This document shows, one piece after another, positions 13,906 to 37,853 of a DNA stretch of 64,000 nucleotides; positions within the stretch are counted from its first letter, which is position 1; each line of letters begins with the position of its first letter. The notes below the pieces were generated by a model that had not been told where the DNA came from, did not search any database, and was given only the letters and a program-made list of their open reading frames with translations. Location of the stretch: the NCBI GenBank assembly GCA_035546035.1, contig DASZXC010000008.1, forward strand, positions 188,265-252,264, read 5' to 3'. This DNA comes from Minisyncoccota bacterium (GTDB lineage: Bacteria > Patescibacteriota > Minisyncoccia > Phycocordibacterales > UBA6065). The position numbers and the translations under genes were made by a program.

Positions 13906-13926
13906 CTCGGGATAGAGCTATGACTG

Positions 13927-14354: not shown

Positions 14355-14392
14355 AAGGATTCAAGAGGGACAAGCCCTCAAGGGATCAAGAA

Positions 14393-15199
14393 TCACTGCT
14401 TCCGGGCAGCCGACACGCCGATGTGGCCATGGTGGAGGCCGTCGCTCCAGTCGCCGACGTTGAGACCCTCGGAATCGAAGCCGCCGACGCGGACACGACC
14501 GCCGCCCGAGTCGAGACTGGAAGTCCGAACGTAGACGTCTTCGAAGAGTCGGACACCACGAACCTCGAAATAGGTCGTGATGAACCAGCTCATCTCGGCG
14601 GCGTTCGGCACAATCTCGACTTTGGACAGGAGCTTGGTCTGCTCCTTCCACGTTTTGTTGGTCGAATTCGAGACGGGCGTCTTCTTGATGGCCATCCATC
14701 CCGACGACGTTTTGTCCTCGCGAGCGAACGTCTCCTTGTCTTCGGCATACCATCCGCCCGACTTCGAGTAGAAGTGGGCTGACTGGATCTCCCGAATATC
14801 GAGTGTCGACAGTGCCGTGGGCGGTGCGGGGATGACGGCGTAGCCGTTCTCCTTGCACCACGTGAGCACTTCTTCCGACGGCAGACTTTCGGCGAGGGCC
14901 GTGATCTGTTCGTCGGTGTAGACGATCCCTTTGCGAGCCTTGGCGACTTCCTCCGGCGTGATGAAATCCTCGCCGAGGATTGACTGTGCCAGTGCGTAGT
15001 CGGGTGCTTTGGCCGAGAAGCGACGGATGCCCTGTGCAAGATACGCGGCGAAGCCGGCATTCTCGTTCAGGCGTTGTGCGCTGTCGTCGTCGAGGTTTGC
15101 TTTGTCATATGCAGACCCGACGGTGGACATGAACTTGAGACCTTTGGGGTCCCGATGCGTAACGGTAACAGACGGGGACAATGGTTTCATTGGCGACAT
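14393..15199 (-). CDS. DGR variable (target) protein with a C-terminal lectin-like VR-encoded tail
   Basis: The C-terminal 40 aa (…GGRVRVGGFDSEGLNVGDWSDGLHHGHIGVSAARKQ) are encoded by the VR. This segment aligns with the TR with 17 mismatches, all at TR adenines. No N-terminal signal peptide is seen; the start is uncertain. Confidence 0.75.
   Translation of the reverse strand: MSPMKPLSPSVTVTHRDPKGLKFMSTVGSAYDKANLDDDSAQRLNENAGFAAYLAQGIRRFSAKAPDYALAQSILGEDFITPEEVAKARKGIVYTDEQITALAESLPSEEVLTWCKENGYAVIPAPPTALSTLDIREIQSAHFYSKSGGWYAEDKETFAREDKTSSGWMAIKKTPVSNSTNKTWKEQTKLLSKVEIVPNAAEMSWFITTYFEVRGVRLFEDVYVRTSSLDSGGGRVRVGGFDSEGLNVGDWSDGLHHGHIGVSAARKQ
14402..14517 (-). repeat. DGR variable repeat (VR) at the 3' end of the target gene
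   Basis: Base-by-base alignment with the TR. The substitutions occur only where the TR has A on the coding strand (plus-strand T changed to G, C or A at 17 sites). Confidence 0.8.
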
Positions 15200-18488: not shown

Positions 18489-19012
18489 AGCTCCGAAACA
18501 CCTGCATTAGGAGGCTCGGAGCTATGGCAAACGTGGGGCTTATCAAGGTTCTATTCTCATGCAATTATACACCATAATATGGCTCTCTGTCAAGCTCAAT
18601 CGTGCAGGCACCTTTCGACTCTCCAAGAACTAGCCCTCAACCAAGCCACCCCATAGAAATACCCTTAAAAGCCCTAGTTTAAGCCCTTTTTGGGCCATCA
18701 AAATGGCTCTGTTGAGCTGTTGGCAACGGGGCTTCGCAAAGCCCTCCTTTCGAGCTAAGGTACATGACTGATATTCGCTTTCGGGGTATCATGGTCAATG
18801 ACAATTTAATAGGAAAGCCTAACCTCTAGGAAAATCACGTTTTTCTAGAGCATGGTCAAAAAATCTCCCGCTAGAGATCAAAGGACTCCCAGTCAGAGTC
18901 GCTCTAGCGGGTCGTGTCTGGAAACGGATACGGGCGGGCCGAAAGGTTCGCCGCGATGGCTGGGAGCCCTTTGTTATTCGGTCTCTCAGTCACATTAAAA
19001 ACCCGCTAGAAA

Positions 19013-19678: not shown

Positions 19679-21205
19679 CTAAAGGAAATATATCCTCGGA
19701 AGCACGGGTGCGTGCTCGGTGACGCTCTGGACGAGGATGGAGAAAGCGTCGACGAGATCGTCGTGCTTCTCGACCCCAAAGTGAACGATCTGCTGAATCA
19801 GTTCCTCCGCGCCCTCCTTGGGAAAGAGTATCTTTCCTGTCTTGATGAGATTCGCCGTGAGGGCAAGCCTTGATCTCTTGTCTTGGTTTCCTGGCCTTGT
19901 CGGAATGACGTTATGGAGACCCTCTTCCTTGAGCTGTTGTGGCAGAGCTTTCTGATATGCAACGTCTTCCACGATGAAGGTTGGCCTCTCATCGCTTGCC
20001 TTGGTATATGCCACGTCGAGAGCCTTGCAGAGGTCGACAGTCTCGGGGAAATTGAGTCTTCGATTGATGATTTTAGGTAGGATATAGATGCGATAGCCGC
20101 TATAGAGCTCGTAGAGCATGCCGGGAACCATGGCGGTGTAGTCGGCGGCGTCGCTTTTCGATATGGCAAGGTCGACACCGATACGGACTTCCATGTGGGT
20201 CATATACCCGCCGAAGCCCTTCTCGGGAGGCGGAATTACGTCATAGTATTGGATCCATTCGCGATGTATCGCTTGTTCTTCGTCAGCGACGATACGGAGA
20301 AGGTATTCGCGTTCCCATGCGAACTCGTTTCCGGCCTTTTTCTTTTCATCCTCTATATCCTCAAGAGACGCATACTTTCCAGGCCAGAGAATCTTCTCAT
20401 TTTGAATCAAGGGATATTCGCGAAACGTACCCGTGAGCTTTCCACGGCCTATGTCTTCTTTCATCCTCATCAAAAGCGAATCCTCGTGGAGGAGGTTTCC
20501 GACGATGACAAGCCTCGTATCGCGATCTCCTGCGGGGATGACCTCGGCCGTGAGCCACTGATATGTCTTGCTTCGGCCTTCGCGGGTTTTGGTCGAGGCG
20601 AGATCCTCTATGTCGTCGCAGACGATTAGATCGGGGCGGTGCTGATTGTGACGGAGGCCACGAATCGATTGCTCGGTCGATACGGCCGTGATGCGGGCAT
20701 CGAGTTGCGAGAATACCAAGGACGACGATCCCCATTGATCTGACTCTTCTTGAAATGGCCCAAGGTCATTCTTGAGGATGGTATTGTTTTCAAGTTCACG
20801 TCGAAGGTTCATCATATGCTGCTTGGCCTGGCTCTGGGTCTGACAGGCGATAAGCACAAATCTTTTTGACTGCTCGCCGAGAATGGCCCACAGAGGATAC
20901 GAGGTCGTGAGGATGGTCGACTTGCCGCATCCTCGAAAAGCCACGATGAAGAGATTGCTGTTATCGCTTTTCTCGGTGAGCCTGAATATCTCCTCATGAA
21001 AAGGAGCCGTCCTGTATTTGACGTAGTGGGAGAGGTAGAAATGGAAGAAGTAATGGTGACTCTTCCTAGTGATTGCCGTCCTCACTTTTCTGTCCTTGAG
21101 CATCGCCTCCACCAATTGGGGCGGCATCGCTCTTTTCGGTTGTATCGTTTGGTTTTCCATTGTCGTTAATGTCGACCGCGACCGCTGTCTCTGTCTCGAC
21201 CTCAC
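19679..21205 (-). CDS. phage terminase large subunit
   Basis: Walker A VAFRGCGKSTILT, Walker B LIVCDDIEDL, and a C-terminal RNaseH-like nuclease region. The true start is probably an internal Met (MENQ at about 21160), because the track ORF overlaps the small-subunit gene. Confidence 0.75.
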   Translation of the reverse strand: MRSRQRQRSRSTLTTMENQTIQPKRAMPPQLVEAMLKDRKVRTAITRKSHHYFFHFYLSHYVKYRTAPFHEEIFRLTEKSDNSNLFIVAFRGCGKSTILTTSYPLWAILGEQSKRFVLIACQTQSQAKQHMMNLRRELENNTILKNDLGPFQEESDQWGSSSLVFSQLDARITAVSTEQSIRGLRHNQHRPDLIVCDDIEDLASTKTREGRSKTYQWLTAEVIPAGDRDTRLVIVGNLLHEDSLLMRMKEDIGRGKLTGTFREYPLIQNEKILWPGKYASLEDIEDEKKKAGNEFAWEREYLLRIVADEEQAIHREWIQYYDVIPPPEKGFGGYMTHMEVRIGVDLAISKSDAADYTAMVPGMLYELYSGYRIYILPKIINRRLNFPETVDLCKALDVAYTKASDERPTFIVEDVAYQKALPQQLKEEGLHNVIPTRPGNQDKRSRLALTANLIKTGKILFPKEGAEELIQQIVHFGVEKHDDLVDAFSILVQSVTEHAPVLPRIYFL

Positions 21206-24539: not shown

Positions 24540-24555
24540 GTATACTTGTTTATAC
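24540..24555 (+). promoter_or_regulatory. candidate operator palindrome GTATA-N6-TATAC overlapping the RBS region of the LexA-like gene
   Basis: Inverted repeat GTATActtgttTATAC, 3 nt upstream of the ATG at 24558. Confidence 0.3.
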
Positions 24556-24557
24556 CT

Positions 24558-25193
24558 ATGCTTCAATATCTAAGCGACAAGGATAAAGAGGTCTATGTGC
24601 TCGTCCGTAACAGGATAGTCCACGGCCTTAAGACTCCCACTCTCGAAGAGATAAACAAAGTGACAGGTAAGTCGTCCCCACGATCGGCGGTTCTTGCGCT
24701 CGAAAGGCTCGAAAAGGCCGGTCTTCTGAGGAGGATGGGAGGAAAAATCCGACTTATGAGTCAGAGCTTAACTCCAAACGCTTCCATCTCTACCATTGAG
24801 GTACCGCTTGTCGGCACGATTGCCGCAGGTGCTCCGATCCTCGCAGAAGAGAATGTCGAAGCGATGATTCCCGTATCGACCGCTATAGCGAAACCTGGCT
24901 CGAAGTACTTCTTGCTTCGCGTCACGGGCACGTCGATGAACATGGCGAAAGTGAATGGGGTCAAAATCGACGAAGGTAGCATCGTCTTGGTCAGGCGACA
25001 GGAGACTGCGGATGATGGGGACATTGTAGTGGCGCTTATCGACGACAGCGCGACAGTCAAGGTCCTCGAACGAAAGAATGGCATGGTCATTCTTCGCCCA
25101 AAGTCTTCCGACCCGCACAAGCCGATCATATTAACAAATAATTGTATCGTTCAGGGGGTGGTAGTCGGAGTATTGCCGTCTGATCTCTATTAA
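24558..25193 (+). CDS. LexA-like repressor (winged HTH plus S24 self-cleaving peptidase domain)
   Basis: N-terminal wHTH (LEEINKVTGKSSPRSAVLALERLEKAGLL), Ala-Gly cleavage site VGTIAAGAPI, catalytic Ser in GTSMNMA and Lys in ATVKVL. The track ORF starts at TTG 24546. Confidence 0.75.
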   Translation: MLQYLSDKDKEVYVLVRNRIVHGLKTPTLEEINKVTGKSSPRSAVLALERLEKAGLLRRMGGKIRLMSQSLTPNASISTIEVPLVGTIAAGAPILAEENVEAMIPVSTAIAKPGSKYFLLRVTGTSMNMAKVNGVKIDEGSIVLVRRQETADDGDIVVALIDDSATVKVLERKNGMVILRPKSSDPHKPIILTNNCIVQGVVVGVLPSDLY

Positions 25194-25211
25194 CAGCTAT
25201 GAAAAATAACT

Positions 25212-26339
25212 ATGCCTGAACGCCCAAGCATACCCGATCAGGTAAAGCTCAAGCTCTGGGCGCTTTCTGGTGCGCGTTGCGAGTTCCCGGGCTGTAACAA
25301 GTATGTCTGGCGAGACGGCCTTACCCTCAAAGACGATAATTTCGCTCACATGGCTCATATCATTGCGGCGAACCCTGGCGGTCCCCGTGGCGATGAGGTC
25401 GCTTCTCCAGAGTTAGCTACCGACTATGACAACCTTATGCTCCTATGCTTTGATCACTCGAAGCTCGTAGACGGCAAAAACAAATGCGATTACACCATCG
25501 AGTATCTGCGAGAATACAAACGATCTCATGAGGACAGAATTCGCCGTCAGACAGAGCTGTCGCCAGAGATGACGACCACGGTCTTGAGATTCTCAGCGAA
25601 TATCGGTGATCGTCCTGTGGAGGTTTCCACAAAACAAGCTTATCAGGCGATACTGCCACGTTATCCCGCAGATGACCGCGGCATAGCCCTCGATTTCACT
25701 AACCGCCCAGGCCGAGGCAAGGCGGACTTTTGGACGTCTTTCGCGTCGGAGATAAGCGAACGAGTCGAGAAAGAGCTAAGGGCGGGCAACGACCGTTCTC
25801 GGCCAAGTCATATCTCCGTATTCGCACTTGGTCCTATTCCTCTGCTTGTCCACTTGGGCAATGCCATAGGTAATACCATCTCCGCCGATCTGTATCAGCG
25901 ACACCGCGATACTGAGAACTGGACATGGAAGAATGAGGCTCAAGATGATCTCGCCTATGAGGTCAAGGAAACGAAAGGAGAAACTGGAGGCGATATAGCC
26001 GTGGTCTTGTCCCTGAGCGGTAAGATCCATTACGATGAGGTGTATAAGCTCTTTGCTAAAAAACCTCATCTCTATGAGATAACCATTGCCACTCCTGCGC
26101 CTGGCTTCCTTGCCTCAAGACCGAAGCTCGAAAAGTTTCGATTGGCCTATCGTGAGCTTCTCACCAAAATCAGGACTCTTCACGGCGGAGGAACAGTAAT
26201 TCATCTCTTTCCGGCTATTCCCGCGCCGATTGCGGTCGTCTGCGGACGAGAGATACTGCCGAAGTCAGACCCGAAAATGACGGTCTACGATCACGAAAAC
26301 GCTCAAGGTGGATTTATTCCGATTCTAACAATTAATTAA
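25212..26339 (+). CDS. HNH endonuclease fused to a SAVED-like sensor domain (Cap5-like CBASS effector)
   Basis: N-terminal HNH (CEFPGCNKY...AHMAHII...LLCFDHSK) followed by a C-terminal domain of about 280 aa. This architecture and its adjacency to a CD-NTase match Cap5. The SAVED call is by architecture and context, not by explicit alignment. Confidence 0.55.
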   Translation: MPERPSIPDQVKLKLWALSGARCEFPGCNKYVWRDGLTLKDDNFAHMAHIIAANPGGPRGDEVASPELATDYDNLMLLCFDHSKLVDGKNKCDYTIEYLREYKRSHEDRIRRQTELSPEMTTTVLRFSANIGDRPVEVSTKQAYQAILPRYPADDRGIALDFTNRPGRGKADFWTSFASEISERVEKELRAGNDRSRPSHISVFALGPIPLLVHLGNAIGNTISADLYQRHRDTENWTWKNEAQDDLAYEVKETKGETGGDIAVVLSLSGKIHYDEVYKLFAKKPHLYEITIATPAPGFLASRPKLEKFRLAYRELLTKIRTLHGGGTVIHLFPAIPAPIAVVCGREILPKSDPKMTVYDHENAQGGFIPILTIN

Positions 26340-26340
26340 C

Positions 26341-27234
26341 ATGGATATACAAAAATTTCTTAACAGCCTGCTTGCCTCGCAAGATCTGCTCATCGAGCAG
26401 GAAAACTCGCTTCAGACGCACAAAAAAGAGGTGACCGATTTCCTTGTCGCTGAATTTGGCAATAAGCCCAAGATCAAATACGCGGGGTCCCGAGAGAAAG
26501 GCACAATGATCCGCGACAGCTACGACCTCGACATCGTGTGCTACTTCCCGAGCACCGATACACGAAGTCTCAAGGAAATCCGTCAGGAGGTGTCGGATCA
26601 TTTGAGCCAACGCTACGTCATGCAGGACAAGGCATCAGCTGAGAGGATAACCAATCTCAAAGGTGCTAAGACGCCTGAGAGCTATCACATAGACGTTGTG
26701 CCGGGCCGATTCATAGAGGGTAGCAACGATGTATTCATCCATGTCGCCTATGGAGACAAGGAGCGCATGCAGACGAATCTCAAGACGCATATCGACCATA
26801 TTGCCAAGAGCGGATGCGTGCCAGTAATCAGGCTCGTAAAACTCTGGAGTGTCCGAAATAACGTATCAATCAAGACCTTCATTCTCGAGCTCTTCGTTGT
26901 CGAGGTACTCAAAGGTAGTCAGAACAAGGGCGATCTTCGTAGCGGCTTCATCAAAGTCATGGAAGCTCTCCGAGATAATTTTGGATCAATGCAACTTGTT
27001 GATCCTGCAAACTCGAACAACGTCGTTTCAAGGACGATAGATTCATCCCAGCGTGTCATGGTTTCTCACGTCGCGGATGAGACACTCTCTAAAATAGAGG
27101 ATTCCACTAATCTCTCTGATTGGAGGGCGGTATTTCATGAGGAAAATGATCGAGGTACTACCGCTTCACGCTCATATACTCCAGATGCTGGCCCGACTAT
27201 CATCAACAATCCTTCAAAACCATGGGCGTGGTAG
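26341..27234 (+). CDS. cGAS/DncV-like nucleotidyltransferase (CD-NTase / SMODS)
   Basis: Pol-beta NTase signature GSREKGTMIRDSYDLDIV (GS-x10-DxD), a third acidic residue in HIDVVP, and a helical C-terminal domain. The start codon lies 2 nt after the Cap5-like stop. Confidence 0.6.
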   Translation: MDIQKFLNSLLASQDLLIEQENSLQTHKKEVTDFLVAEFGNKPKIKYAGSREKGTMIRDSYDLDIVCYFPSTDTRSLKEIRQEVSDHLSQRYVMQDKASAERITNLKGAKTPESYHIDVVPGRFIEGSNDVFIHVAYGDKERMQTNLKTHIDHIAKSGCVPVIRLVKLWSVRNNVSIKTFILELFVVEVLKGSQNKGDLRSGFIKVMEALRDNFGSMQLVDPANSNNVVSRTIDSSQRVMVSHVADETLSKIEDSTNLSDWRAVFHEENDRGTTASRSYTPDAGPTIINNPSKPWAW

Positions 27235-27950
27235 ACGGTAGTGTGACGCGGTACGTTTTCACACCAGAAGAGATAGCAGAAATCGGGCAAAGGTATGGCC
27301 TTGAGCTCATCACACCAAGTGTTTGGAAAGGAACGCTCAACATCTATGCCTCGTATAACGGCCTGCCGCTGAAGGATAAGTTCGAGATAAAAATCGGGAT
27401 ACCTTTTAACTATCCGAATTCGACTCCAGTTATGTCGGAAGTGGGAGGCCGTACTGCGACCATAATTAAAAAGTATAAGATCAAGGATCCGCGCGATCTC
27501 CACTTCAACATCGGTAGCGAGACGGCCTGTCTCTGTGTGCGCCAAGAGGAAAAGAAAAAGTTTCCGCCAGGCTCGTCACTATCGGTCTTCATAGAGAATC
27601 TCGTGATTCCGTATCTTTACGGCCTGAGTCATTTCGATATGTATCGAAAATGGCCATGGGGAGAAAGGTCGCATGGTGTCCTCGGCATGCTTGAGTTTTA
27701 TGGAGAAAATCCCGACAAACAGACAGAGGAAAGTATGAGGGAAATTACCGCCGCTTTACGACCAGAGAAAAATTGGAAGGAATACGATAAACAGCTACGA
27801 AATCCTCGTCCGCATGGTCGGTGTGTTTGTGGTAAAGATAAATCATTTGAGAAATGTCATTTCGCGGCTTTTCAGGGTGTAGTCTGCTTCAACGAAGACC
27901 TCAAACGTCTAGGCATCACCACCGCAAAACTGTTTCAGTCACGACCCTAA
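27222..27950 (+). CDS. E2 ubiquitin-conjugating-enzyme-like protein (type II-short CBASS Cap2-like, E2 only)
   Basis: UBC-like HPN-type motif HFNIGSETACLCV with a candidate catalytic Cys. Overlaps the CD-NTase gene by 13 nt. Confidence 0.45.
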   Translation: MGVVDGSVTRYVFTPEEIAEIGQRYGLELITPSVWKGTLNIYASYNGLPLKDKFEIKIGIPFNYPNSTPVMSEVGGRTATIIKKYKIKDPRDLHFNIGSETACLCVRQEEKKKFPPGSSLSVFIENLVIPYLYGLSHFDMYRKWPWGERSHGVLGMLEFYGENPDKQTEESMREITAALRPEKNWKEYDKQLRNPRPHGRCVCGKDKSFEKCHFAAFQGVVCFNEDLKRLGITTAKLFQSRP

Positions 27951-28273: not shown

Positions 28274-28543
28274 ACCCCTAATATATACCCTATGATAAAG
28301 CTGTCAACAGAGCCAATGTTACAGTCCAAAAAGGCCTTTATGCTGTAACATTTGTAACATTCCTGTGAATGAGACATGATCCGAACTAGCCCTTTCCGTG
28401 TCTCATTTGTCTCATTCACAAAATTCGACCCCGACCCACGTACCTCATTTCCGCCTGCCGAAAAATGCTATTATGCCCTTACGGGGTCTTACCTCATGGG
28501 TACTTAACCCGACTACACCGCATAGTGAATAAGGTATCGGACA

Positions 28544-28559
28544 AACCCACGTACCTAAA
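28544..28559 (+). repeat. 16-bp direct repeat AACCCACGTACCTAAA (left copy; right copy at 35374..35389)
   Basis: Exact 16-bp match. The two copies bracket the second serine-recombinase module. Confidence 0.5.
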
Positions 28560-28570
28560 ATTAGGCAAAC

Positions 28571-28596
28571 AAAAAATCCCAAATATGGGATTTTTT
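28571..28596. terminator. bidirectional terminator AAAAAATCCCAaataTGGGATTTTTT
   Basis: Stem flanked by an A-run and a T-run, immediately after the stop of recombinase 2. Confidence 0.55.
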
Positions 28597-28597
28597 G

Positions 28598-29923
28598 TTA
28601 CTGAGCGAGAGCCAGGGTTTTGTCTTTGTAAATTATTCTCGACTTCAAGCTACCCAATAATTCTCGTTTCTCTATAATCGAACCCTCTTTCAGAATATAT
28701 TTTGCATAATTTTTAATATCAGTCTCGGTATTATTTTTGACTTTATCTTGGCTTCCTAAGACCGATCTTTGGAAGATGTTGAATCGGCTGATTTCTTCCT
28801 CGAGTTTTCGTCTCATACCAAGTTCGTTTATATCAAGAAGATCTATTATCTTCAGGAGCCCGGAAATTAGCTCCTCCTCTCGTATATAAGTATTCTTGCA
28901 ATTGCGATCTCGCGCTCTGCTGCAACCATAGTAGACATAGCGATGAGAACCGCCATTTTTACGCTCCTTCCATTTCTCTTCGGCAGACACTCCTGAACCG
29001 CAATGACCGCAGCTGAATAATTTTGTGAAAGCGAACTCTTTGTTTTCACGGACAATCTTATCTCTGGTCAGCTGAGCCTGCGCTTTATCGAAGAGCTCTT
29101 TTGATATCAGGGGAGCGTGTTTGCCCGTATACCAATTGCCGCTGTTCTTCGGACGCTCGAAGACTCCGTAATAGAAAGGGTTGTCGAGTGTGCGATAGAT
29201 GCCGCTCAGGGTGAACGGCTTGTTGCCTCGGGTGTGGAAGTTTAATTCAAATTTCAGCCAGTTGTAGAGCTTCATCCCGCTCCAGTTTTCATACGCGACT
29301 TTTTCGAACATCTGTTTGATGATTGGCGCTCTGATCGGATCAGGTACAACCTGACACTTTTTATCCATCATGTACTGGTTGAGATATCCGAGGGGAGCTA
29401 AGCCTGCCCATAATCCCATCTCCGCTCGAGTTCTGAGTCCGCGCTTCACATTCAGACCTCGATTATCGTTCTCAAGCTTTGCCTGTGATCCCAAGATCAT
29501 GAGGAGGAATTTGTCACTCGGACTATTCGTGAATCGTTGCCCGAACGTTTGGATTTCTTTGAGTTTTCCTGAATCGAGGAGATCGACAACCTTTCCCAGG
29601 TCTCCTGCGTTCCTCGAGATTCGATCTGGAGCCCATGTCAGGATGCTGTTGAATTTCCCTTTACCGATATCATCGATAATCTCATTGAAGATCGGCCGTT
29701 GACCTGTCTCTTTGGCGGAATGCGACTCACGCTTTATTTCTACGACTTCGAGATTATCGCGCGAGGCGAGCTCCAGCATCTCTTTAATCTGCGAATCTAT
29801 GGAAAGCACCTGTCTTTCCTCGGATTCGGTGCTTTTACGCGCGTAAAGGCAGTATTTTGCCTTTATAGGGGCTTGTAAGGGCTTGATAATGACTCCGGCT
29901 GGGGCTTGGGCTATATTGCTCAT
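28598..29923 (-). CDS. large serine recombinase (second copy)
   Basis: YCLYARKSTESEERQVLSIDSQ and a zinc ribbon CGHCGSG...YYGCSRARDRNCKN. About 75% aa identity to 9711..11042. Confidence 0.85.
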   Translation of the reverse strand: MSNIAQAPAGVIIKPLQAPIKAKYCLYARKSTESEERQVLSIDSQIKEMLELASRDNLEVVEIKRESHSAKETGQRPIFNEIIDDIGKGKFNSILTWAPDRISRNAGDLGKVVDLLDSGKLKEIQTFGQRFTNSPSDKFLLMILGSQAKLENDNRGLNVKRGLRTRAEMGLWAGLAPLGYLNQYMMDKKCQVVPDPIRAPIIKQMFEKVAYENWSGMKLYNWLKFELNFHTRGNKPFTLSGIYRTLDNPFYYGVFERPKNSGNWYTGKHAPLISKELFDKAQAQLTRDKIVRENKEFAFTKLFSCGHCGSGVSAEEKWKERKNGGSHRYVYYGCSRARDRNCKNTYIREEELISGLLKIIDLLDINELGMRRKLEEEISRFNIFQRSVLGSQDKVKNNTETDIKNYAKYILKEGSIIEKRELLGSLKSRIIYKDKTLALAQ

Positions 29924-30156
29924 ATAGCAATCAATGCCGCATCCCGCCCAAAGAGGCTAGTTGGTAACTAATTCCGAGAGATGTTTAATCTTTTGTTAAG
30001 ATTGCTACGCAAAAACATGAAAGAAGAGTGGTATACAAATCATATAAAACAGATCAGGGTAATCGCGGACGCTCGTTATACTCCTGAGTTAAACGTAGAT
30101 CTTCCAATCTCTGATAGATATTCAACAGGGTTACAGAGATTGGTTACGACCCAAAA

Positions 30157-31257
30157 TTGCATGGTGAATTCGATTCCAATGTAAATTATTACGATAGAAG
30201 TGGTAGATCGGAACATAAGGCAGAGAGAATAGGTAAAAAATATCAGTGGATCGCCTATCATGAGTTTATGGCGCTTGTGTCTGACCATTTTGAGTTCAGT
30301 GGCAGACGCTGGGGAGCAACCTCTGAACACTACAAAGGTCCGTGGACGCCTCGGATAAGAGATATTGATCCTTCTTTCATCATGCAAAATGATCGAACTA
30401 ATCAGAAAGTTGCAACGTTTGAAAATTGGAAGAGCAAATCTGGCAAGTACAATGCTTGGAATTTGTCACTAGACGACAAAAGTTGGTTGGAGGTAAAAGA
30501 TGATCTACTCGATCCTAAAAATATAATAGAAATCGCAGATGATGCGGGTAATAAGTGGCTAACTCTACAAGGAATATTCGTTTGGCAGGCAGAAACTGCT
30601 CCGGAGCATAAAAAATACGATATACCGACGCGAGAGGTCTTCTATATCCTCAAAAGTTTCATTATCAGAAAAAGTGACTATGAAAAAACACTATCCTGGC
30701 TTAATGCCAAGGGCTTCGGCAACTGGTTGCCAGAGTCTCACCAGTTCTACGAGACATTTATTGGTGAATACCCTAATTCTTTTGCCTTCGATGATTTAAG
30801 AGGCGACTATAATATTTGGAGGAAAGCAAATGATAAGCTTGATGTACCGCTCGTCGTTACTGACGATGCTTATCTAAATGAATTCACGCTCGACTGTTCG
30901 CATGAAGGGGCTGTATCTGTAAGAATGCCCTCAAAGTTTATAGTAAATGAGATGCAATTGGTGCAGAAAAATCTCGACGGTATTTTTTCTGACAAAGATA
31001 ATAAGATCATTTCCTATACGACTAACGTTTTCAAGGAATCTTTTCCGTCTGCGCTTCTAATAGATAAAAAGGCGCTCTTAAAGTTTCTTGATGATGCCGG
31101 ATACAAAATATTTTGGACGCTTCTCGGAGAAAAACAGATAATAGGAGGATCGTTAGCGGGAAGAGATTTCAAAGGGAGGTTAGATATTACGGGTACGTAT
31201 GGTTTTCCTGACGACTCCAAATTAAAAGGATCAATGGATACTAGATTTACCTCTTAA
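30157..31257 (+). CDS. hypothetical protein encoded in a low-GC segment (possibly the frameshifted C-terminal part of a larger gene)
   Basis: 366-aa ORF. A 67-aa ORF (29981..30184) overlaps its 5' end in another frame. GC is visibly lower than the surroundings. Confidence 0.35.
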   Translation: MHGEFDSNVNYYDRSGRSEHKAERIGKKYQWIAYHEFMALVSDHFEFSGRRWGATSEHYKGPWTPRIRDIDPSFIMQNDRTNQKVATFENWKSKSGKYNAWNLSLDDKSWLEVKDDLLDPKNIIEIADDAGNKWLTLQGIFVWQAETAPEHKKYDIPTREVFYILKSFIIRKSDYEKTLSWLNAKGFGNWLPESHQFYETFIGEYPNSFAFDDLRGDYNIWRKANDKLDVPLVVTDDAYLNEFTLDCSHEGAVSVRMPSKFIVNEMQLVQKNLDGIFSDKDNKIISYTTNVFKESFPSALLIDKKALLKFLDDAGYKIFWTLLGEKQIIGGSLAGRDFKGRLDITGTYGFPDDSKLKGSMDTRFTS

Positions 31258-31388
31258 ACACTAAGTCTTTGGAGGTATTACACAATCTTTTGTATCTAAG
31301 CTAAGGTACTGACTGGTATCTCTTTTTGGGATATCATGTAGTTACAACTGAATAAAAAAGTAGCCTAAACCCTCGAGAAATCGGCGGC

Positions 31389-31946
31389 ATGGCGAAGGAA
31401 ATCCGATTAAGTATAAAAAGGCCCCCATCAGGGCTACTTAATCGGTCATATCAGGAAACTGGTATGGATAGCCTTCGGGCTATCACCTGGTGTGGGGCTT
31501 TTTGTATTCAAAGAGCCTTCCGGGATTACCAGTTAGCAGGCTCTTATATGTTTTTCTTTATTTGGTTAGGGTTGTCTATGTTGGTGGGCGCGTATGCGAG
31601 CAACAGAAAAACTGCGGGAGGATTCTTCCTTGGATTTTTTGTCTCCATGGTTTTTTCTCCTCTTGTTGGTTTTGTGGCGGTAGCAGTCTCTAAGCCTAGT
31701 CAGAGCAGGGTCGAGGCGGGAATGAAGAAATGTATCCATTGCGCCGAGCTTGTTAAGAAGGAGGCGATCAAGTGCAGGTACTGCGGGGCGGATCTTCCAG
31801 TTCAAGAGGAATCTAAGGAGATTGTTGAACCTAAGACAGAGAAGAGTCCGGAGGAGAAGAAATCAGATAGAATCGCGGCCATTTCAGTGACGGGGTTTAT
31901 ACTGGTTCTTATTCTCATCTTCTATCTTCTGACGAAGTTCCGCTAG
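31389..31946 (+). CDS. hypothetical membrane protein with a zinc-ribbon (CxxC...CxxC)
   Basis: TM helices plus CIHCAELVKKEAIKCRYCG, and a C-terminal TM anchor. Confidence 0.35.
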   Translation: MAKEIRLSIKRPPSGLLNRSYQETGMDSLRAITWCGAFCIQRAFRDYQLAGSYMFFFIWLGLSMLVGAYASNRKTAGGFFLGFFVSMVFSPLVGFVAVAVSKPSQSRVEAGMKKCIHCAELVKKEAIKCRYCGADLPVQEESKEIVEPKTEKSPEEKKSDRIAAISVTGFILVLILIFYLLTKFR

Positions 31947-32603
31947 CTTGGCGTCTCGGTAGGGTTTGCTCGCAATGAGTTCTTGAAGATCCTTCTCTCG
32001 CTGTTCCATAAGAGCCTTCTGGATATTCAGTGAGAGGGTGTTTATATCTACATGACCTTGCATTGCATTGTGGAAGTCGAGCTTCTCTAGTAATTCTTTC
32101 TCACGAGGTGTTGTCCCATAGTCATTCGGCATGTATTTCTGCATGAACCATCGGGTTATCATCTTGTCGCCCTCGATCAGAAAGTTACGTACGTTCTCGG
32201 TTGCTATCGTAGTGGTTTCTTTTGCGGGATCTACTGTTTGATGGGGTTTTACTTCTTTCGCCTTCATATATCTTGGGTCGTTATGACTGAGCCAGAACGA
32301 TATGGCGGGCATCTTTCTCTCTCGGATAAGGGAGATGATTTGCGACTCGCACATATCGTTCATGAAGCGTCGGCTGTATTCGCCAGCCTCATCTGCCATC
32401 TTCTTGAACCTCTTGTCGGAGTGATACCAACGGTAAAAGGTCGCACGGGATATACCCGCTTTCTTGCACGCGACCTCTATTACGGGTGTCTCGCGGAGCT
32501 TCTCGAGAAGGAAAGTCTTCTCTTTTCTCTGGCGAGCCGCGATAGAGGCTCTGCGATGCTTTATTGAATCTTCGTGGCCTTGAGTCCCGTTAGATTCTCC
32601 CAT
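31884..32603 (-). CDS. terminase small subunit-like HTH protein (paralog of 21066..21572)
   Basis: HTH PVIEVACKKAGISRATFYRWYHSDKRF. Confidence 0.45.
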   Translation of the reverse strand: MGESNGTQGHEDSIKHRRASIAARQRKEKTFLLEKLRETPVIEVACKKAGISRATFYRWYHSDKRFKKMADEAGEYSRRFMNDMCESQIISLIRERKMPAISFWLSHNDPRYMKAKEVKPHQTVDPAKETTTIATENVRNFLIEGDKMITRWFMQKYMPNDYGTTPREKELLEKLDFHNAMQGHVDINTLSLNIQKALMEQREKDLQELIASKPYRDAKLAELRQKIEDENKNQYKPRH

Positions 32604-33895
32604 CGTTTTTTAATTACTTCTGCGTAGACGGGCGACTTTTCCATGAGGAAGCATCGGCGCTTGAGTCGTGTCGAGGCTATAAGCGTCGATCCGCTTCCTC
32701 CGAAGGGCTCGAGGACGAGCTGGCCACGCTTCGTGAGAACTTTGATGTACGGGATCAGTATCTCGACAGGCTTCGTGCCGAAGATGATGCTCTGGCCGGA
32801 CGATTTCTCGTCCGAAGCAACGCATTCGATGAAGTCGGTCGGGCAGTACTTGTTGCCTTTACCGTACGCCTCCCATTGAGGCTTGCCTTGGATGGCGAAG
32901 AGGGCGGTCTGATACTCGTTCTCGAGAAGCGAATCGTCCTCTGGCTCGAGATTGAGTCCAGAATGCTCCTCGCTCGTCCCGACCATGGCTATGTCGTGCT
33001 TGGAGAAGAACTTGAGCTTGCCCGCATAGCCCTGATTCCTGTTGGGGAGGTGCCAGACGAGCATGTTCCTGACCTTCCAATGCTTGGCTAGCTCGGACCA
33101 TATGACGGGAATGTTCTTCCAGTTCTCGTAGACGATGATCGAGAAGTTCTCGGCCTGTACTTTAGCGACGTTTCCCATCCAGAGCTCGGTGAAATCGTCG
33201 GGAATGGACTCGGTCTCGAGGTACCTACGGTTCTTCTTGGTTCCGAAGCCCGTTGTGGCCTCGCCGTTCTTTCCTTTGCCGTGCAGGTAGTCGAGGATGT
33301 ACGGTGGATCGGTCATGACCATGTCTATCTTCTCGTCTCCGCAGAGCTTCAGCATGTCGGCCTCGATAGTCGAGTCGCCGCACATAAGCTTTGAGCCGTC
33401 CAGATCGTAGACGTCGCCCTTCTTTATCTCGATGTTGTTTATATCGAGCTTCTCCAGCTCCTTCTGTAGGTCGAAGATCTCTTCTTTCTCGTCCTCACCG
33501 AAGATATTGTCGATCTCCTCTGACGAGAAGCCGACGTCTTGAAGGAAGATCTCGTCGAAATGCTCTTGAAGGAGTTCGAAGTCGAATTCGCCGACAGCTT
33601 TGTTCAAGCGGAGGGAGATCTCTCGCTCCTTGTCGAGATCGGTAATGTTAACGGAGACGACGGGGACGGTCTCAAAGCCCAGCTCCTTCATCATCTCCCA
33701 TTTGAATACGCCGCCAAGGATGACGTTCTCTCGGCTTGGGGCATTGTTGCAGAGCAGTGGATTGAGGCATCCGAACTTCCTCAGCGACTCCTTGAGCTGT
33801 TCGGCTACCTCGGTCGAATGCTTGCGGACGTAATACTCAGGCACTTTCAAGACGCTCGATGGAACATGGTCTACCTTCATGGTTTCTATAGACAT
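32561..33895 (-). CDS. ParB-like nuclease domain fused to a DNA methyltransferase (second copy)
   Basis: ParB-like N-terminus, then MVMTDPPYILDY and a C-terminal EPFGGSGSTLIAS. Confidence 0.75.
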   Translation of the reverse strand: MSIETMKVDHVPSSVLKVPEYYVRKHSTEVAEQLKESLRKFGCLNPLLCNNAPSRENVILGGVFKWEMMKELGFETVPVVSVNITDLDKEREISLRLNKAVGEFDFELLQEHFDEIFLQDVGFSSEEIDNIFGEDEKEEIFDLQKELEKLDINNIEIKKGDVYDLDGSKLMCGDSTIEADMLKLCGDEKIDMVMTDPPYILDYLHGKGKNGEATTGFGTKKNRRYLETESIPDDFTELWMGNVAKVQAENFSIIVYENWKNIPVIWSELAKHWKVRNMLVWHLPNRNQGYAGKLKFFSKHDIAMVGTSEEHSGLNLEPEDDSLLENEYQTALFAIQGKPQWEAYGKGNKYCPTDFIECVASDEKSSGQSIIFGTKPVEILIPYIKVLTKRGQLVLEPFGGSGSTLIASTRLKRRCFLMEKSPVYAEVIKKRWENLTGLKATKIQ

Positions 33896-34085
33896 ATTTT
33901 TACTGGCTTAACCGACGTGATAAGAGGTCATATGTGTTTGATGAATCCTTTTACAATTTAGGTGGTACAGCTAAGGTGAGACCCCTCTCGATTTCGGCGT
34001 ATGCGCATATGCCGATCCTTAACCTCGCATATTAAGTATAGCGGGGAGGGGTCGAATTTGTTCTTTCCCTCGGAAGGAGTAGAGT

Positions 34086-34535
34086 GTGTGGGCAAATAAG
34101 GCCCATGGCACCTACGTGTGTCTCATTTGTCTCATTTACCATCCCGTGAACGCAACCAGCACTGATTTCGCAAAGACTTTTCCAAGAGACGTCGCCAAAA
34201 TGATGATCGATGCTTTTGCGTCGGGTACTAAAATGGCCGCCGAGATGATCTGGGGAGTGGTACGTGAACTTCTTGCTCAACACTGGCTCGCTGTAATCGG
34301 TATCGTTCTCTTGATTTTGTTCATGGCTTTTGCTGAATACCTCTTCACAGGCCGCTGGAAGATGCTTGGTCAGGTCCTCTATAGGATTATCAACTGGGGA
34401 TCGTTGCTAGCCATAGTATCTATATTCGGTCTCGGCATATTCACGAGCGATTGGGCCGATATCTATCTCGCTCTCGTGGGTATAGCTAGCTATTTATTCG
34501 TGGGGTGGCTGTTGCGCCGCGTTGGTATTCGATAA
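34086..34535 (+). CDS. hypothetical membrane protein
   Basis: Three or four TM helices. The start is uncertain. Confidence 0.3.
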   Translation: MWANKAHGTYVCLICLIYHPVNATSTDFAKTFPRDVAKMMIDAFASGTKMAAEMIWGVVRELLAQHWLAVIGIVLLILFMAFAEYLFTGRWKMLGQVLYRIINWGSLLAIVSIFGLGIFTSDWADIYLALVGIASYLFVGWLLRRVGIR

Positions 34536-35388
34536 ATTTATGCCTCCAGAAAAACCCAAACGCAAAAGCCTCATAACCCAGTTCTACGTTCAGGCGAACG
34601 ACAGGACTTTTCACCAGCTCGTGAAGCTCATGGTCGATTTGGTCGACGGCGAGATGAACGAGATCAAGCTTATTTTAAAATATTCAGGCCTGAAGTATGG
34701 CCCGAGTCCGATGGTTGATACCGTTACCGGAAAGAAGTTTGGGCAAGATGGGCCAAGAATGCCTCTTCAAGGGGATCAGATCGAGATCTCATATCACAAA
34801 GATGGGGCTATTACATACAAAGACCCCGCGAAACAGGATGGTCATAAGCACATAAGCAAGCGCGCCTACATTCGACCTTTCAAAAAGATTAAGGAGCCGC
34901 AGATGTTTTTTAGTATCACAGGCTGGCAAATAAATTATCCGCCCGCTAAGGTACCGAAGCCTGGTAATGGGCGTGAAGAGATTGTGTTTGGACTCGGCCC
35001 TTCCTTTGCGCCAAGCGATAACATCAACTGTGTGATCTACATATCTAATGGATATGCGGCCTTCAATATCCCTGAGTGGAACGCTCATTTGTTTCCTGAT
35101 GCGCCAGAACATATTCAATTTCCGGTTGAGGGAACTAATTTGATCCTGACCTTCTTTTTCTGGAGGTTCCAAGGAAATTCGACAGAGGCCACATTCTCTA
35201 TTCGTACCGATACTTGGAAGGATAGGCTGAAGCGTCTTTATTTTGGGATTAAGCTGGGCCGCGCCTACCCGATGTTTCGAGATACGCTCATCAAGCTTCG
35301 CTACAAGATAGTTCCCAAAAAGATTCCGCCTGGCACCGTGCACCAATCTCAGGAATATAAACCACAGGACCCCAACCCACGTACCTAA
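34522..35388 (+). CDS. hypothetical protein (its stop codon lies inside the right-hand 16-bp direct repeat)
   Basis: 288-aa ORF with no motif recognised. Confidence 0.35.
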   Translation: MVFDKFMPPEKPKRKSLITQFYVQANDRTFHQLVKLMVDLVDGEMNEIKLILKYSGLKYGPSPMVDTVTGKKFGQDGPRMPLQGDQIEISYHKDGAITYKDPAKQDGHKHISKRAYIRPFKKIKEPQMFFSITGWQINYPPAKVPKPGNGREEIVFGLGPSFAPSDNINCVIYISNGYAAFNIPEWNAHLFPDAPEHIQFPVEGTNLILTFFFWRFQGNSTEATFSIRTDTWKDRLKRLYFGIKLGRAYPMFRDTLIKLRYKIVPKKIPPGTVHQSQEYKPQDPNPRT

Positions 35389-35389
35389 A
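35374..35389 (+). repeat. 16-bp direct repeat AACCCACGTACCTAAA (right copy)
   Basis: Identical to 28544..28559. Confidence 0.5.
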
Positions 35390-35558
35390 TTGCAGAGGCG
35401 AAATGGTGCTAAAATACCCTTACAACGGTTGGGCCTACATTTACTTAACCCGCCATCACCGCAACAAGGAAGATATCCGATGAGTCCCTCATGTCGAAAA
35501 TGGCATTCGCTGTAAAGAAAAAACACCGCGTAAGCGGTGTTTCGCCTTTAAAAAAGAC

Positions 35559-35975
35559 TTACGTCACTTTATCGAGGTCTTGCGTCCTGATCTTCTCGAC
35601 ATGGTGGGACGGGAGCGCGATCCTGTCGACTATATCCGAATCGTTGTCTTGCCGCGCATCCTCGAGTACGATAAATCTTTCGCCATTATCGGGATCTGTC
35701 ACGAGCCTTCCTTCCCAGACTTCGCCGTCGATGAGGTCGACACGTACCGTCTTGCCGACAAGCGCGCAAAGATTCTCTTCGCTGCCCGTTTCCTTTTCTT
35801 TGTCTTTCTTGCCGGGACTCGCCGCATGGAACATTATCGAGCTTCCGATGATGCCAATGAGGACGACTAGCAAGGCCGCGACATATTTCCAATTGACGCC
35901 GATAATCAACAAAGCTCCGCAAATCGAAGCCAGGAGAATGGCGATTCCAATAGATTTGAGCAGTTTGTTTTTCAT
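35559..35975 (-). CDS. hypothetical membrane-anchored protein
   Basis: Two N-terminal TM helices and a C-terminal soluble domain. A hairpin plus T-tract terminator at 35516-35545 follows the gene. Confidence 0.4.
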   Translation of the reverse strand: MKNKLLKSIGIAILLASICGALLIIGVNWKYVAALLVVLIGIIGSSIMFHAASPGKKDKEKETGSEENLCALVGKTVRVDLIDGEVWEGRLVTDPDNGERFIVLEDARQDNDSDIVDRIALPSHHVEKIRTQDLDKVT

Positions 35976-36134
35976 AAGATCGATCTAAAGAAAGATTAGC
36001 ACTGCATAGTGCAAAGTCAAAAACAGCTTAAGGGTCGCTTTTAAACTTAGATGAGAAAGGAGGGCTGCGTGATCGGCTAGTTGTATAAAAAAGCCCGAGA
36101 AGAACTCGGGCTCTGAGAAAGAACTATGAATGGC

Positions 36135-37349
36135 CTATAGGCCGGTCGCTTCTGCCGGTGCCGGATTCTGCGCTTCTGCAGCCGAGGCCGGCCGCATCGT
36201 TCGCTTTGTCGAACCTGATCCGTCAGGGAGATCGCCTGAAGGCACCGTCGAGAACCTGTCTTTGAGCTTCAGGAACGGCAGCTCGAACCACCGATAAGAT
36301 GCCATCGCGAGGGCGAGCGTCACGAACGCCGAGAGCCCAACGAAGGATCCGGCCCGCGCGATGCGCACCCACAAATCCCTGGTCCCTGCGTCTGGAAGGA
36401 GCGCATCGACCGCGAACAAGACCGGCGGATGGAATACGTACAGGCCGTAGCTGATCTTCCCGAGGTAGGATAATGATTCCGGGACCTTCACGAGCCGTTG
36501 CCCGTAAACTGCGCCGAACAGGCATAGGCAACAAAGGGCCGCGAGCGGGTAAAACGTCAACGCTCCCCATGCGACCCTGGTGCCCCAAGGCTGGAAGGAA
36601 TCCATGAATAGGAAGAGGAACGGAGGCCCGATCAGTCCCGCCGACAGAAGCAGGAGCCGGACGCGCCCTGATGGAGCCCATCCGCGTTTCCTGATCGCAT
36701 CGGCGAACCATATTCCGGCGAAGATCGCGTCGAGCCGCGCCGGAGAATTGATCCACAGGCCTATCCCTCTGGACACGCAGAACGCCTTGTACGCCGCCGA
36801 GAAGAGAAGGCCGTAAGCGCAGAGCTTGCCGATCCCGATCTCTTTCGGCTTGAACTTCAGCGTCAGCGCCCACACGAAATAGAATTGCTCCTCCATGCCG
36901 ATGGTCCACAAGTGGCCCGTCGTCCCGTTTATGCCGAAGAGCATGAACGAGAAATTGCCGAGGAAGAGCAGGTTCATGACTATGTGGACGCTGCGGATGC
37001 CCGGTTCGAGCGGCTGCCAGACCATGAACACCAGGATGAACCCGAAATACAATGGCCAAATCCGAAGCGCGCGCCTCCAGAAGAAATCGCCGAGACGGAA
37101 ATCGCCTCCGCGCATCTCGCGTTCCCTGAGGATGAGCGTGGTGATGAGAAAGGCGCTGATGCAGAAGAACAGGTCGACGCCGATCGATCCGGAACGGATG
37201 ATCGCGGCGAGCAGGCGCTGCGGCCCCGGCGGCAGGTTGGCGACGAATCCTCCTTTTCCCATGAACTGCACAGACGCATGCAGGGAAAAGACGGACGCGC
37301 ATGCCCAAAACCGGAGCGCGTCCAGTTCCGGACAATAGAATCTTTTCAT
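36135..37349 (-). CDS. acyltransferase family 3 (OafA-like) membrane protein
   Basis: N-terminal ELDALRFWACASV motif and about 10 TM helices. Locally very high GC. Confidence 0.7.
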   Translation of the reverse strand: MKRFYCPELDALRFWACASVFSLHASVQFMGKGGFVANLPPGPQRLLAAIIRSGSIGVDLFFCISAFLITTLILREREMRGGDFRLGDFFWRRALRIWPLYFGFILVFMVWQPLEPGIRSVHIVMNLLFLGNFSFMLFGINGTTGHLWTIGMEEQFYFVWALTLKFKPKEIGIGKLCAYGLLFSAAYKAFCVSRGIGLWINSPARLDAIFAGIWFADAIRKRGWAPSGRVRLLLLSAGLIGPPFLFLFMDSFQPWGTRVAWGALTFYPLAALCCLCLFGAVYGQRLVKVPESLSYLGKISYGLYVFHPPVLFAVDALLPDAGTRDLWVRIARAGSFVGLSAFVTLALAMASYRWFELPFLKLKDRFSTVPSGDLPDGSGSTKRTMRPASAAEAQNPAPAEATGL

Positions 37350-37604
37350 AATGAAGCTGTAAAAGAACTGGCACGTTCCGCCGCACCATGCGACGGTATC
37401 GAGTATGCATCAAAGAATACATCTATAATACAATTTTGTCAATATAAGGCCGAGGAAAGCGGCCCCCGCCTCTCGGCCTCACGCGCTCGATGGGGGGGTT
37501 ACCGGCATGGCATCGGGGTCGGTCGCCTGATGCCCGCGGCCATACACAGGATCGCTTTCCTGTCCTGCTGTGGTGGGACAGGCTAGGTCTGTTAGAATGC
37601 CTCT

Positions 37605-37853
37605 ATGGCCAAGAGAATATCACAAGGCGTCGTGCATACATTGCCCCGGGATATGCGGAAAGCCCTTGCTTCATCCAAAGCGGCTCTTGAGGCGTGGGAA
37701 AGCCTCACGCCCCTCGCGAGGAACGAATGGATCTGCTGGGTCGAGTCGGTCAAGAAGCAAGAGACGAGGGACAATCATGTGAGGAGGGTCCGCGAGGAGC
37801 TCGTCGAAGGCAAGCGCAGGCCGTGCTGCTGGGCGGGATGCCCTCATCGCTGA
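37605..37853 (+). CDS. YdeI/OmpD-associated family small protein
   Basis: LTPLARNEWICWVESVKKQETR pattern. Confidence 0.45.
   Translation: MAKRISQGVVHTLPRDMRKALASSKAALEAWESLTPLARNEWICWVESVKKQETRDNHVRRVREELVEGKRRPCCWAGCPHR

Follow-up and report, generated by a model that had tools for sequence, protein, structure and literature searches.

Probable tandem phage-like elements with large serine recombinases behind a tRNA-Ser gene of a Candidatus Paceibacterota genome, and the probable layout of their attachment sites

The window analysed here is a 64-kb stretch of DNA from a Candidatus Paceibacterota metagenome-assembled genome (MAG). An island occupies the window from about 4 to 36 kb, has a G+C content below that of its flanks and starts directly after a tRNA-Ser(GCT) gene. 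The island probably consists of two related phage-like integrative elements, E1 and E2, each with its own large serine recombinase (LSR), which stand in tandem at the 3' end of the tRNA gene, with the two 16-bp repeats of E2 in the arms of its attachment site and the crossover at a CCGCA sequence (Table 1). Comparisons with related loci demonstrate the architecture, the left border and the conservation of the end structures across the family. The crossover would lie within a few nucleotides of CCGCA; catalysis by the LSRs at these sites and the functions of the two repeated motifs are predicted from sequence.

Repeats and borders of the elements

Two pairs of direct repeats lie at the ends of E2. 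The 16-mer AACCCACGTACCTAAA is found exactly at 28544-28559 and 35374-35389, with a copy of three mismatches at 28433-28448, and none of 100 shuffles reached three matches. The 19-mer GTGTCTCATTTGTCTCATT is found exactly at 28398-28416 and 34118-34136, where chance predicts 0 matches. Both pairs had been described in a first-pass annotation and are exact and beyond chance. The annotation also listed the partial third 16-mer and a 13-nt inverted repeat around the left 19-mer (TGTGAATGAGACA and TGTCTCATTCACA, at 28364-28376 and 28408-28420), and both were recovered, the latter as read off the sequence. The left exact 16-mer ends 38 nt from the stop of the LSR2 gene, and the right one overlaps the TAA of the open reading frame (ORF) 34522-35388. 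The 9-mer TGTCTCATT occurs five times in the window, all within two iteron sites, and both motifs are confined to the element ends there. The repeats look interleaved because two direct-repeat pairs bracket E2.

Alignment of the left flank with the right end, as the annotation had proposed, showed an in-register block of ~100 nt, in which 28427-28522 matches 35368-35463 at an offset of 6941 and an identity of ~71%. Weaker similarity runs beyond it to about 28560/35500. The partial 16-mer at 28433 is the positional homologue of the copy at 35374 within this block, from which the exact copy at 28544 is displaced by 111 nt to the right.

The left border was located by comparison with an empty site. 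Congeneric genomes (L237-L240) have a syntenic tRNA-Ser(GCT) without the island, in the order ABC transporter, tRNA-Ser(GCT), M10 peptidase, phosphoribosyltransferase and pilus genes, with an ABC permease 85% identical to that of the window. DNA homology between the window and L237 passes through the tRNA gene and stops at window position 3958, 8 nt beyond its 3' end, and the element arm that follows the tRNA in the window (the P' arm, here P'1) is missing from the L237 site. The more distant L241 has a tRNA-Ser(GCT) with a differing T-arm, yet its P' arm is 93% identical to that of the window. Thus, the P' arm is element DNA and the left junction lies at the 3' end of the tRNA gene. The distal end of the element (the P arm) does not carry an identical repeat of the tRNA end; it carries a mimic in the tRNA register, about 16/27 identical and ending in CCGCA.

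Attachment-site architecture across the family

Both recombinases contain a PF07508 recombinase domain and a PF13408 zinc ribbon, each scoring above its Pfam cut-off. In LSR2 the three domains all pass (resolvase domain PF00239, E = 1e-19, with 71.6 bits where the cut-off is 23.3; PF07508, 50.9 bits; PF13408, 36.6 bits), and its catalytic segment YARKS aligns with YLRRS of SPbeta SprA (serine nucleophile). SprA is also the nearest solved structure, at only about E = 4e-17 in a PDB comparison. A species-representative genome collection holds more than 565 relatives of LSR2 at 67-78% amino-acid identity, nearly all of them in Patescibacteria MAGs, and 80 related LSR loci were fetched for comparison of synteny and noncoding features. 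The gene order ParB-methylase, small terminase, (large terminase), ..., LSR recurs in ~22 of the 80. The recurring layout is tRNA-Ser, P' arm (spacer gACAAnTTAGTATCGG, GACCC motif and terminator), cargo and LSR and, towards the other end, ParB-methylase, tandem TGTCTCATT, P arm and host DNA.

The P' arm is found 0.1-8 kb downstream of the LSR stop and is composed of a terminator, the reverse complement of GACCC..CCTAAAA, usually a hairpin, and CCGATAnTAAATTGTC, its spacer directly abutting a tRNA-Ser gene antisense to the LSR. A P' profile retrieved 68 copies, 50 of which adjoin a tRNA-Ser gene called by ARAGORN (anticodons GCT, TGA, CGA, GGA and ACT), one a tRNA-Asp gene and four a P unit; 12 of the remaining 13 adjoin uncalled or cut tRNA-like ends. 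The bases before P' are (C)CGC(C)A in 67/68 copies, in a single fixed register. The tRNA-Ser genes of related loci that lie away from an LSR have no P' arm and are directly followed by an intrinsic terminator.

The P arm is a unit of ~100 nt with the order GACCCCGACCCAC.T.CCT, a -10-like GCTAnAAT, CCCTTA and then tGGGTACTTAACCCnnnTACACCGC(C)A, and the iteron is mostly 0-58 nt upstream. In one subfamily the -10 box is weak, with CCCTTA and the mimic still conserved. The profile used on metagenome contigs was a rebuilt version covering divergent subfamilies that the first profile had missed. In the 32 units collected, the sequence is highly conserved as far as CCGC(C)A, after which conservation collapses. 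Thirteen units run into a P'-type flank, which makes them attP-like junctions, and 18 run into unrelated DNA, often a terminator; unoccupied tRNA-Ser genes likewise have a terminator next. From this collapse, and from the continuation of the units either as unoccupied tRNA-Ser genes continue or into P', we infer a crossover at the equivalent of the tRNA 3' end. The conserved blocks flanking CCGC(C)A, a mimic of ~27 bp and a spacer of ~25 bp up to the first GACCC, amount to ~52 bp, the typical size of an LSR attP.

Clusters of P units were observed in three loci (L067, 1-2057; L078, 8362-9677; L060, 14430-15130), where the units are 0.6-1.2 kb apart with no LSR between them. L067 has three units, the first two each followed by a P'-type spacer, and in L078 an identical terminator sequence follows two units. 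The clusters resemble mini-cassettes devoid of an LSR, or scars left by serial insertion. At tRNA-Ser flanks of some loci (L005, L016, L017 and L042), a second P' GACCC motif is followed by a tRNA T-loop fragment, GTTCGAATC...CGCCA, and then by another P' spacer; these sites are compact P-O-P'-like scars without the -10-box segment.

Proposed recombination

In the circular form of an element, attP would be composed of the iteron (two copies of TGTCTCATT) and the P arm (GACCC..ACCT motif, -10-like box and the mimic ending in CCGC(C)A), joined to the P' arm and the LSR gene. The P' arm in attP would contain the 18-nt spacer gACAAnTTAGTATCGG, the GACCC motif with or without the hairpin, and the terminator. 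Recombination with the 3' end of tRNA-Ser would place P' beside the tRNA gene and the P arm at the far end, before the original terminator of the tRNA. With B and B' as the host halves and O as the crossover, 3861-4054 would be the left junction of E1 (B-O-P'1), and 28427-28599 would be an attP-like hybrid junction between E1 and E2 (P1-O-P'2). The recombination points of E2 would be the CCGCA sequences at 28518-28522 and 35459-35463. The two exact 16-mers would be the P'-arm and P-arm copies of the E2 motif, which would flank the crossover in circular E2 at a distance of ~111 bp. The predicted circle joins 35463 to 28523, with ...CCCGCCATCACCGCA followed by TAGTGAATAAGGTATCGG..., and the site predicted after loss of E2, at about 28522 joined to 35464, would read ...CCCGACTACACCGCA followed by ACAAGGAAGATATCCG....

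The first-pass annotation had considered the repeats as remnants of attachment sites and had predicted an empty site joining 28543 to 35390. The repeats do lie in attachment-site regions, but they are probably not the exact crossover, which the family comparison puts at CCGCA. With the recombination point at this equivalent of the tRNA 3' end, the junction of 28543 with 35390 is therefore probably wrong. The annotation had also read the left flank as a deleted copy of the right end. The left flank is a cargo-less counterpart of that end, but it is the right end of a different element upstream, E1, rather than the product of a deletion in situ. Since the gap between iteron and P unit is short in other elements, the ORF pair at 34086-35388 was treated as a cargo insertion, and the left flank resembles a deleted copy because this normally short gap holds two unknown ORFs in E2.

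More speculatively, the distal junction of an inserted element (P-O-B') might still be attB-like, because its P half imitates the tRNA half-site. Each insertion would then renew the landing pad and permit serial accretion, including that of LSR-less mini-cassettes, into defence-rich islands. It is possible, although we propose it tentatively, that Patescibacteria harbour a large undescribed LSR family of this kind, whose attP combines a mimic of the tRNA 3' end with co-evolving arm repeats and an iteron, whose landing pad is regenerated at each insertion and whose recombination is under arm- or regulator-dependent control.

Putative functions of the repeats

The GACCC..ACCT motif, of which the 16-mer is the E2 version, is present on both arms of each element. 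The P and P' copies match better within elements (mean 10.2/14) than between them (9.4/14; permutation p = 2e-4), in a test that ignores relatedness. Element-specific variants common to both arms were found in L062, L039 and L015, and the best match of all, 16/16, is that of E2. The P unit shows no detectable conserved RNA structure, which favours roles of the 16-mer motif at the DNA level. We favour the 16-mer as a putative accessory arm-type protein-binding sequence, or as the product of concerted evolution between repeats 111 bp apart, rather than as the crossover core. The idea that the repeats are binding sites of a recombinase or regulator, which the annotation had listed, is plausible.

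Exact copies of the 19-mer are present in 12 genome loci, in 3 viral contigs and in at least 120 metagenome contigs. The motif belongs to a repeat family only in the benign sense that it is a conserved cis-element of a widespread group of mobile elements. The inverted and tandem arrangement of the E1 iteron is also present in 12 genome loci and many metagenome contigs. The place of the 19-mer in related loci is the methylase end or, in minimal elements, a point ~250 bp upstream of the LSR, and an inverted AATGAGACA is often near it. The tandem repeats of 9-10 bp vary in concert between lineages (TGTCTCATT, TGTCTACTT, TGTCGCATT, TTGGCATTTG and others). A -10-like TATAGT often abuts the iteron, and inverted copies lie upstream, which in some elements take the -35 position relative to the -10 box of the P arm. 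The 19-mer is most likely an operator-type iteron, the putative site of a conserved regulator that would control transcription at the element end. Apart from contigs with no recognisable P unit, the 19-mer is always upstream of a unit whose end resembles a tRNA 3' end, and in metagenome contigs this end differs from one contig to another (CTCCGCCA, GCTCAGCCA, GCCAGCCA, GGGAGCCA and others). The variety of these ends suggests a superfamily of elements that may have several tRNA targets and one shared regulator site.

In five metagenome contigs (L246, L266, L284, L303 and L310), the 19-mer belongs to a row of four tandem copies (TGTCTCATT TGTCTCATT TGTCTCCAT TGTCTCATT) with an A-run before it; the surroundings look different there and contain no recognisable P unit. 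The viral contig L202 (IMGVR_UViG_3300020195_001307) has an exact period of 9,117 bp over the 14.5 kb examined, spanning the 19-mer, methylases and terminase genes, which could point to a small circular genome in concatemeric form or to a perfect duplication in tandem. A scan of viral contigs with TGGGTACTTAACCC gave 116 matches, none with the GACCC and -10-like context of a P unit.

The P' hairpin shows compensatory changes, and its stability is modestly above that of shuffles (mean z = -1.3). Its sense and antisense forms show no bias in stability or G-U counts, and it may act as an RNA, as a terminator or as a palindromic DNA site. The hairpin may simply replace the displaced terminator of the tRNA gene.

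Alternative explanations

Several observations weigh against the interpretation as two tandem elements with the crossover at CCGCA. No excised or circular form of E2 was obtained, nor a right-hand empty site, and L237 shares no DNA with 35464-37800; the borders of E2 are therefore drawn by analogy with related loci. The P'2 arm was missed by the P' profile at E <= 1 and must therefore be diverged; it also has no P' hairpin. In the mimic of E2 the conserved GGG reads TTT, a loss from which E2 may be immobile or decaying. The sequence to the right of 35463 is faintly similar to a P' spacer; instead of true host DNA, it may be one more remnant. The better match of the arm motifs within elements comes from a test that does not allow for relatedness. 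Classical LSR sites of about 40-50 bp need no arms (a typical attP is ~50 bp), and we know of no precedent for direct repeats flanking an LSR core.

Alternatively, the 16-mer could be the core shared by attL and attR in an element of 6.8 kb at 28544-35389, whose excision would join 28543 to 35390, leaving ...GGTATCGGACAAACCCACGTACCTAAATTGCAGAGG... at the empty site and ...GGACCCCAACCCACGTACCTAAAATTAGGCAAAC... in the circle. The linear sequence fits this equally well, with an exact match of 16/16, one copy ~40 nt from the LSR2 stop and the other at the far end of the module, and some LSRs, for example that of SPbeta, share a core of about such length. However, attP would then be without the two blocks that the family conserves best, the mimic and the spacer, and the target would be two tandem P-type units. 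The unoccupied site that this implies (tRNA-Ser, spacer, motif, -10 box and mimic) was found in none of 78 tRNA-Ser genes, nor in L237, and 18 related P units stay conserved for ~75 nt past the motif and break only after CCGC(C)A. This explanation is less parsimonious than a crossover at CCGCA, and we regard it as unlikely.

A small RNA gene carried by each element, in which the ~100-nt unit would supply a -10 box, a tRNA-half-like transcript and a terminator, is compatible with the insertion of two elements at tRNA-Ser. The extended -10-like TGCTAnAAT, the conserved CCCTTA downstream, the terminator directly after the unit or after P', and the inverted iteron copy at the -35 position in L025, L043, L067 and L202 are consistent with such a gene. 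However, RNAalifold predicts 0 pairs in the P unit, and neither a long-range ACCCA/TGGGT helix nor a T-arm-like helix shows covariation above shuffles. Rfam has no match to 28300-28650 at the gathering threshold or at E <= 10, the subfamily with the weak -10 box keeps CCCTTA and the mimic, and the 16-mer at 35374 is upstream of the putative start. A small RNA is also unlikely. A segmental duplication in situ followed by a deletion, with the repeats as its relics and no site-specific recombination, would agree with the alignment of 28427-28560 to 35368-35500 and with the similar relative position of the 19-mer once the 1.2-kb ORF pair is removed, but it is highly improbable, as the blocks (~71% identical) and the recombinases (73% at the amino-acid level) are too diverged for a recent event, the same end structures recur in dozens of unrelated genomes, and the upstream block is located where a complete E1, beginning at tRNA-Ser, should end.

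Comparison with known systems

Elements at tRNA-Ser with two arms around CCGCA resemble three kinds of known elements in different respects. Like the LSR prophage integrases (SPbeta SprA, A118/LI Int, phiC31, Bxb1 and TP901-1), the recombinases here have three domains (resolvase, recombinase and zinc ribbon), are encoded at one end of a phage-like element beside the attachment site, and have core blocks of ~50 bp. However, those prophages target protein-coding or intergenic sites, whereas the target here is the 3' end of tRNA-Ser, one half of attP mimics the tRNA T-arm and acceptor, and co-varying direct repeats and an iteron flank the core. Islands that tyrosine integrases insert at tRNA genes (P4-like elements, integrative and conjugative elements, and phage-inducible chromosomal islands) similarly enter at the tRNA 3' end, leave the tRNA intact and carry a copy of its end, with the integrase beside attL, accumulated cargo and defence genes, and tandem arrays at one tRNA. 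They differ in the enzyme, which is of the serine type here, and in the distal repeat, which here is a diverged mimic sharing CCGC(C)A and the register. The SCCmec/Ccr islands at the 3' end of rlmH (orfX) are likewise inserted by LSRs at the end of a conserved gene, accrete serially into tandem elements delimited by short direct repeats, and include cargo-rich and partly decayed members. In those islands a CcrAB pair acts in place of the single LSR found here, whereas the elements described here are in Patescibacteria, target a tRNA gene and have phage-like genes (terminase and ParB-methylase).

The arm motifs may be analogous to the arm-type sites of lambda attP (P1, P2 and P'1-3), which are also short, element-specific repeats on both arms, tens of base pairs from the crossover. 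The lambda sites are bound by the N-terminal domain of a tyrosine integrase, and to our knowledge nothing comparable has been established for LSRs. Full-text literature searches returned no description of LSR elements at tRNA-Ser in Patescibacteria. The repeats themselves are ordinary end structures, and the family behind them is apparently undescribed. It is a widespread group of LSR elements in the Candidate Phyla Radiation with an easily recognised target, the tRNA-Ser 3' end, and provides a rule for delimiting prophages and defence islands in poorly annotated genomes as well as a possible source of site-specific integration tools for organisms that are hard to manipulate. If confirmed, an attP with a tRNA-end mimic, co-varying arm repeats and an iteron would depart from the simple model of LSR sites.

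Gene content of the elements

Table 1. Features of the island, with positions in the 64-kb window
Feature	Position	Strand	Evidence or remarks
tRNA-Ser(GCT), attB-derived half (B), left border of the whole island	3861-3950	+	ARAGORN, Rfam
P'1 arm of E1	3951-4054	+	P' profile match
P'1 spacer TTGACAACTTAGTATCGG	3952-3969	+	
P'1 hairpin		+	
P'1 motif GCGACCCGAGTGC	3997-4009	+	
P'1 terminator	4023-4054	+	
E1, ~24.6 kb	about 3952-28522	.	Pfam, PHROGs, PADLOC, low G+C, synteny with related loci
E1 left cargo	4006-9662		between P' terminator and LSR1: GNAT, Shedu, two unknown ORFs, transposase, APH-type kinase
Shedu (SduA_C)	5098-6294		E1 cargo
IS256/Mutator transposase	7480-8613		E1 cargo
LSR1, paralogue of LSR2	9711-11042	-	Pfam; 73% amino-acid identity to LSR2
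E1 genes after LSR1			in order: diversity-generating retroelement (DGR) reverse transcriptase, LOOT RNA, large terminase, small terminase-like gene, two methylases
E1 right part			in order: LexA-like gene, cyclic oligonucleotide-based antiphage signalling system (CBASS), 108-aa ORF
E1 iteron/operator	28364-28420	+	inverted AATGAGACA at 28368-28376; tandem TGTCTCATT, two copies, at 28399-28416
P1 arm unit of E1	28427-28522	+	nhmmer profile, E = 4e-22; alignment of 31 units
P1 motif GACCCCGACCCACGTACCT	28427-28445	+	
P1 -10-like TGCTATTAT	28466-28474	+	
P1 CCCTTAC	28476-28482	+	
P1 tRNA T-arm/acceptor mimic TGGGTACTTAACCCGACTACACCGCA	28497-28522	+	
P'2 arm of E2	28523-28599	+	register of tRNA-Ser and P'1 (18-nt spacer after CCGCA)
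P'2 diverged spacer TAGTGAATAAGGTATCGG	28523-28540	+	
P'2 16-mer	28544-28559	+	
P'2 bidirectional terminator	28568-28599		
E2, 6,941 bp	about 28523-35463	.	length equals the offset of the in-register arm homology
LSR2, large serine recombinase, 441 aa	28598-29923	-	PF00239, PF07508 and PF13408 above cut-offs
E2 genes, in order			LSR2, Avs2-C-terminal-like ORF (30157-31257), LOOT RNA, zinc-ribbon ORF, small terminase-like ORF (31884-32603), ParB-methylase (32561-33895), iteron, two unknown ORFs
E2 iteron	34118-34136	+	tandem TGTCTCATT, two copies, 223 nt from the ParB-methylase start, without inverted partner
Two unknown ORFs between iteron and P unit	34086-34535, 34522-35388	+	
P2 arm unit of E2	35368-35463	+	nhmmer, E = 2e-21; alignment
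P2 16-mer	35374-35389	+	
P2 -10-like TGCTAAAAT	35407-35415	+	
P2 degenerate mimic ACATTTACTTAACCCGCCATCACCGCA	35437-35463	+	
Presumed host B' flank with intrinsic terminator (about 35522-35546)	35464-35546	+	by likeness to related loci

The tail of P'2, CCTAAAATT..AAAC with a hairpin and the LSR stop, resembles the P' tails of other loci. The large terminase of E1 (19679-21205) matches phrog_38 at E = 7.5e-79. PHROGs and Pfam recognised no capsid, portal or tail genes in E1 or E2, and the only packaging gene of E2 is the small terminase-like ORF. Pfam found no tyrosine integrase in either element, their sole recombinases being of the serine type. No candidate for a recombination directionality factor was recognised among the E2 ORFs, in analyses that did not include a search aimed at one. 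The two ORFs between the E2 iteron and P unit have no match in Pfam, PHROGs or PADLOC and no tblastn match in the 80 related loci. Searches for proteins identical to LSR2, the acyltransferase and the 138-aa ORF retrieved nothing beyond the same contig; the 138-aa ORF, right of E2, is an orphan.

The slot occupied by the left cargo of E1, between the P' terminator and the LSR, holds 0.1-8 kb of variable DNA in related loci. Directly left of the E1 iteron, a LexA/S24-like repressor is followed by the CBASS operon (together 24546-27950, plus strand), with a SAVED effector (25212-26339), a CD-NTase/SMODS gene (26341-27234) and an E2-like protein (27222-27950). In E2, the similarity of the stand-alone 366-aa ORF 30157-31257 (plus strand) to Avs2 defence proteins is confined to their C-terminal ~365 residues (PADLOC, E = 2e-97; positions 1133-1497 of the 1504 in the profile). 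Pfam and PHROGs gave no match to it, and none of the 80 LSR loci holds a relative. The ORF could be what is left after truncation, or a sensor-like domain in free form.

The DGR of E1 spans 12434-15199 on the minus strand. Its template repeat (13924-14041) and variable repeat (14399-14516), the latter at the 3' end of ORF 14393-15199, differ at 18 positions, 17 of which (17/18) are template adenines. A GA-rich repeat encoding (RE)n marks the point where the reverse transcriptase is divided into two ORFs (12873-13529 and 12434-12871). LOOT RNA motifs (Rfam RF03000, 71 and 81 bits) are present on the plus strand in E1 (18816-18952) and E2 (31362-31484). Each either shortly precedes or overlaps the start of an ORF on the plus strand, which is a tRNA_anti-like OB-fold gene (at 19013) in E1 and the zinc-ribbon ORF (at 31389) in E2. 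The main texts of the LOOT literature hold no functional information. Well outside the island, internal repeats of ~290 nt with 76% identity are found at 57531-58413, inside a 1555-aa ORF (54194-58861).

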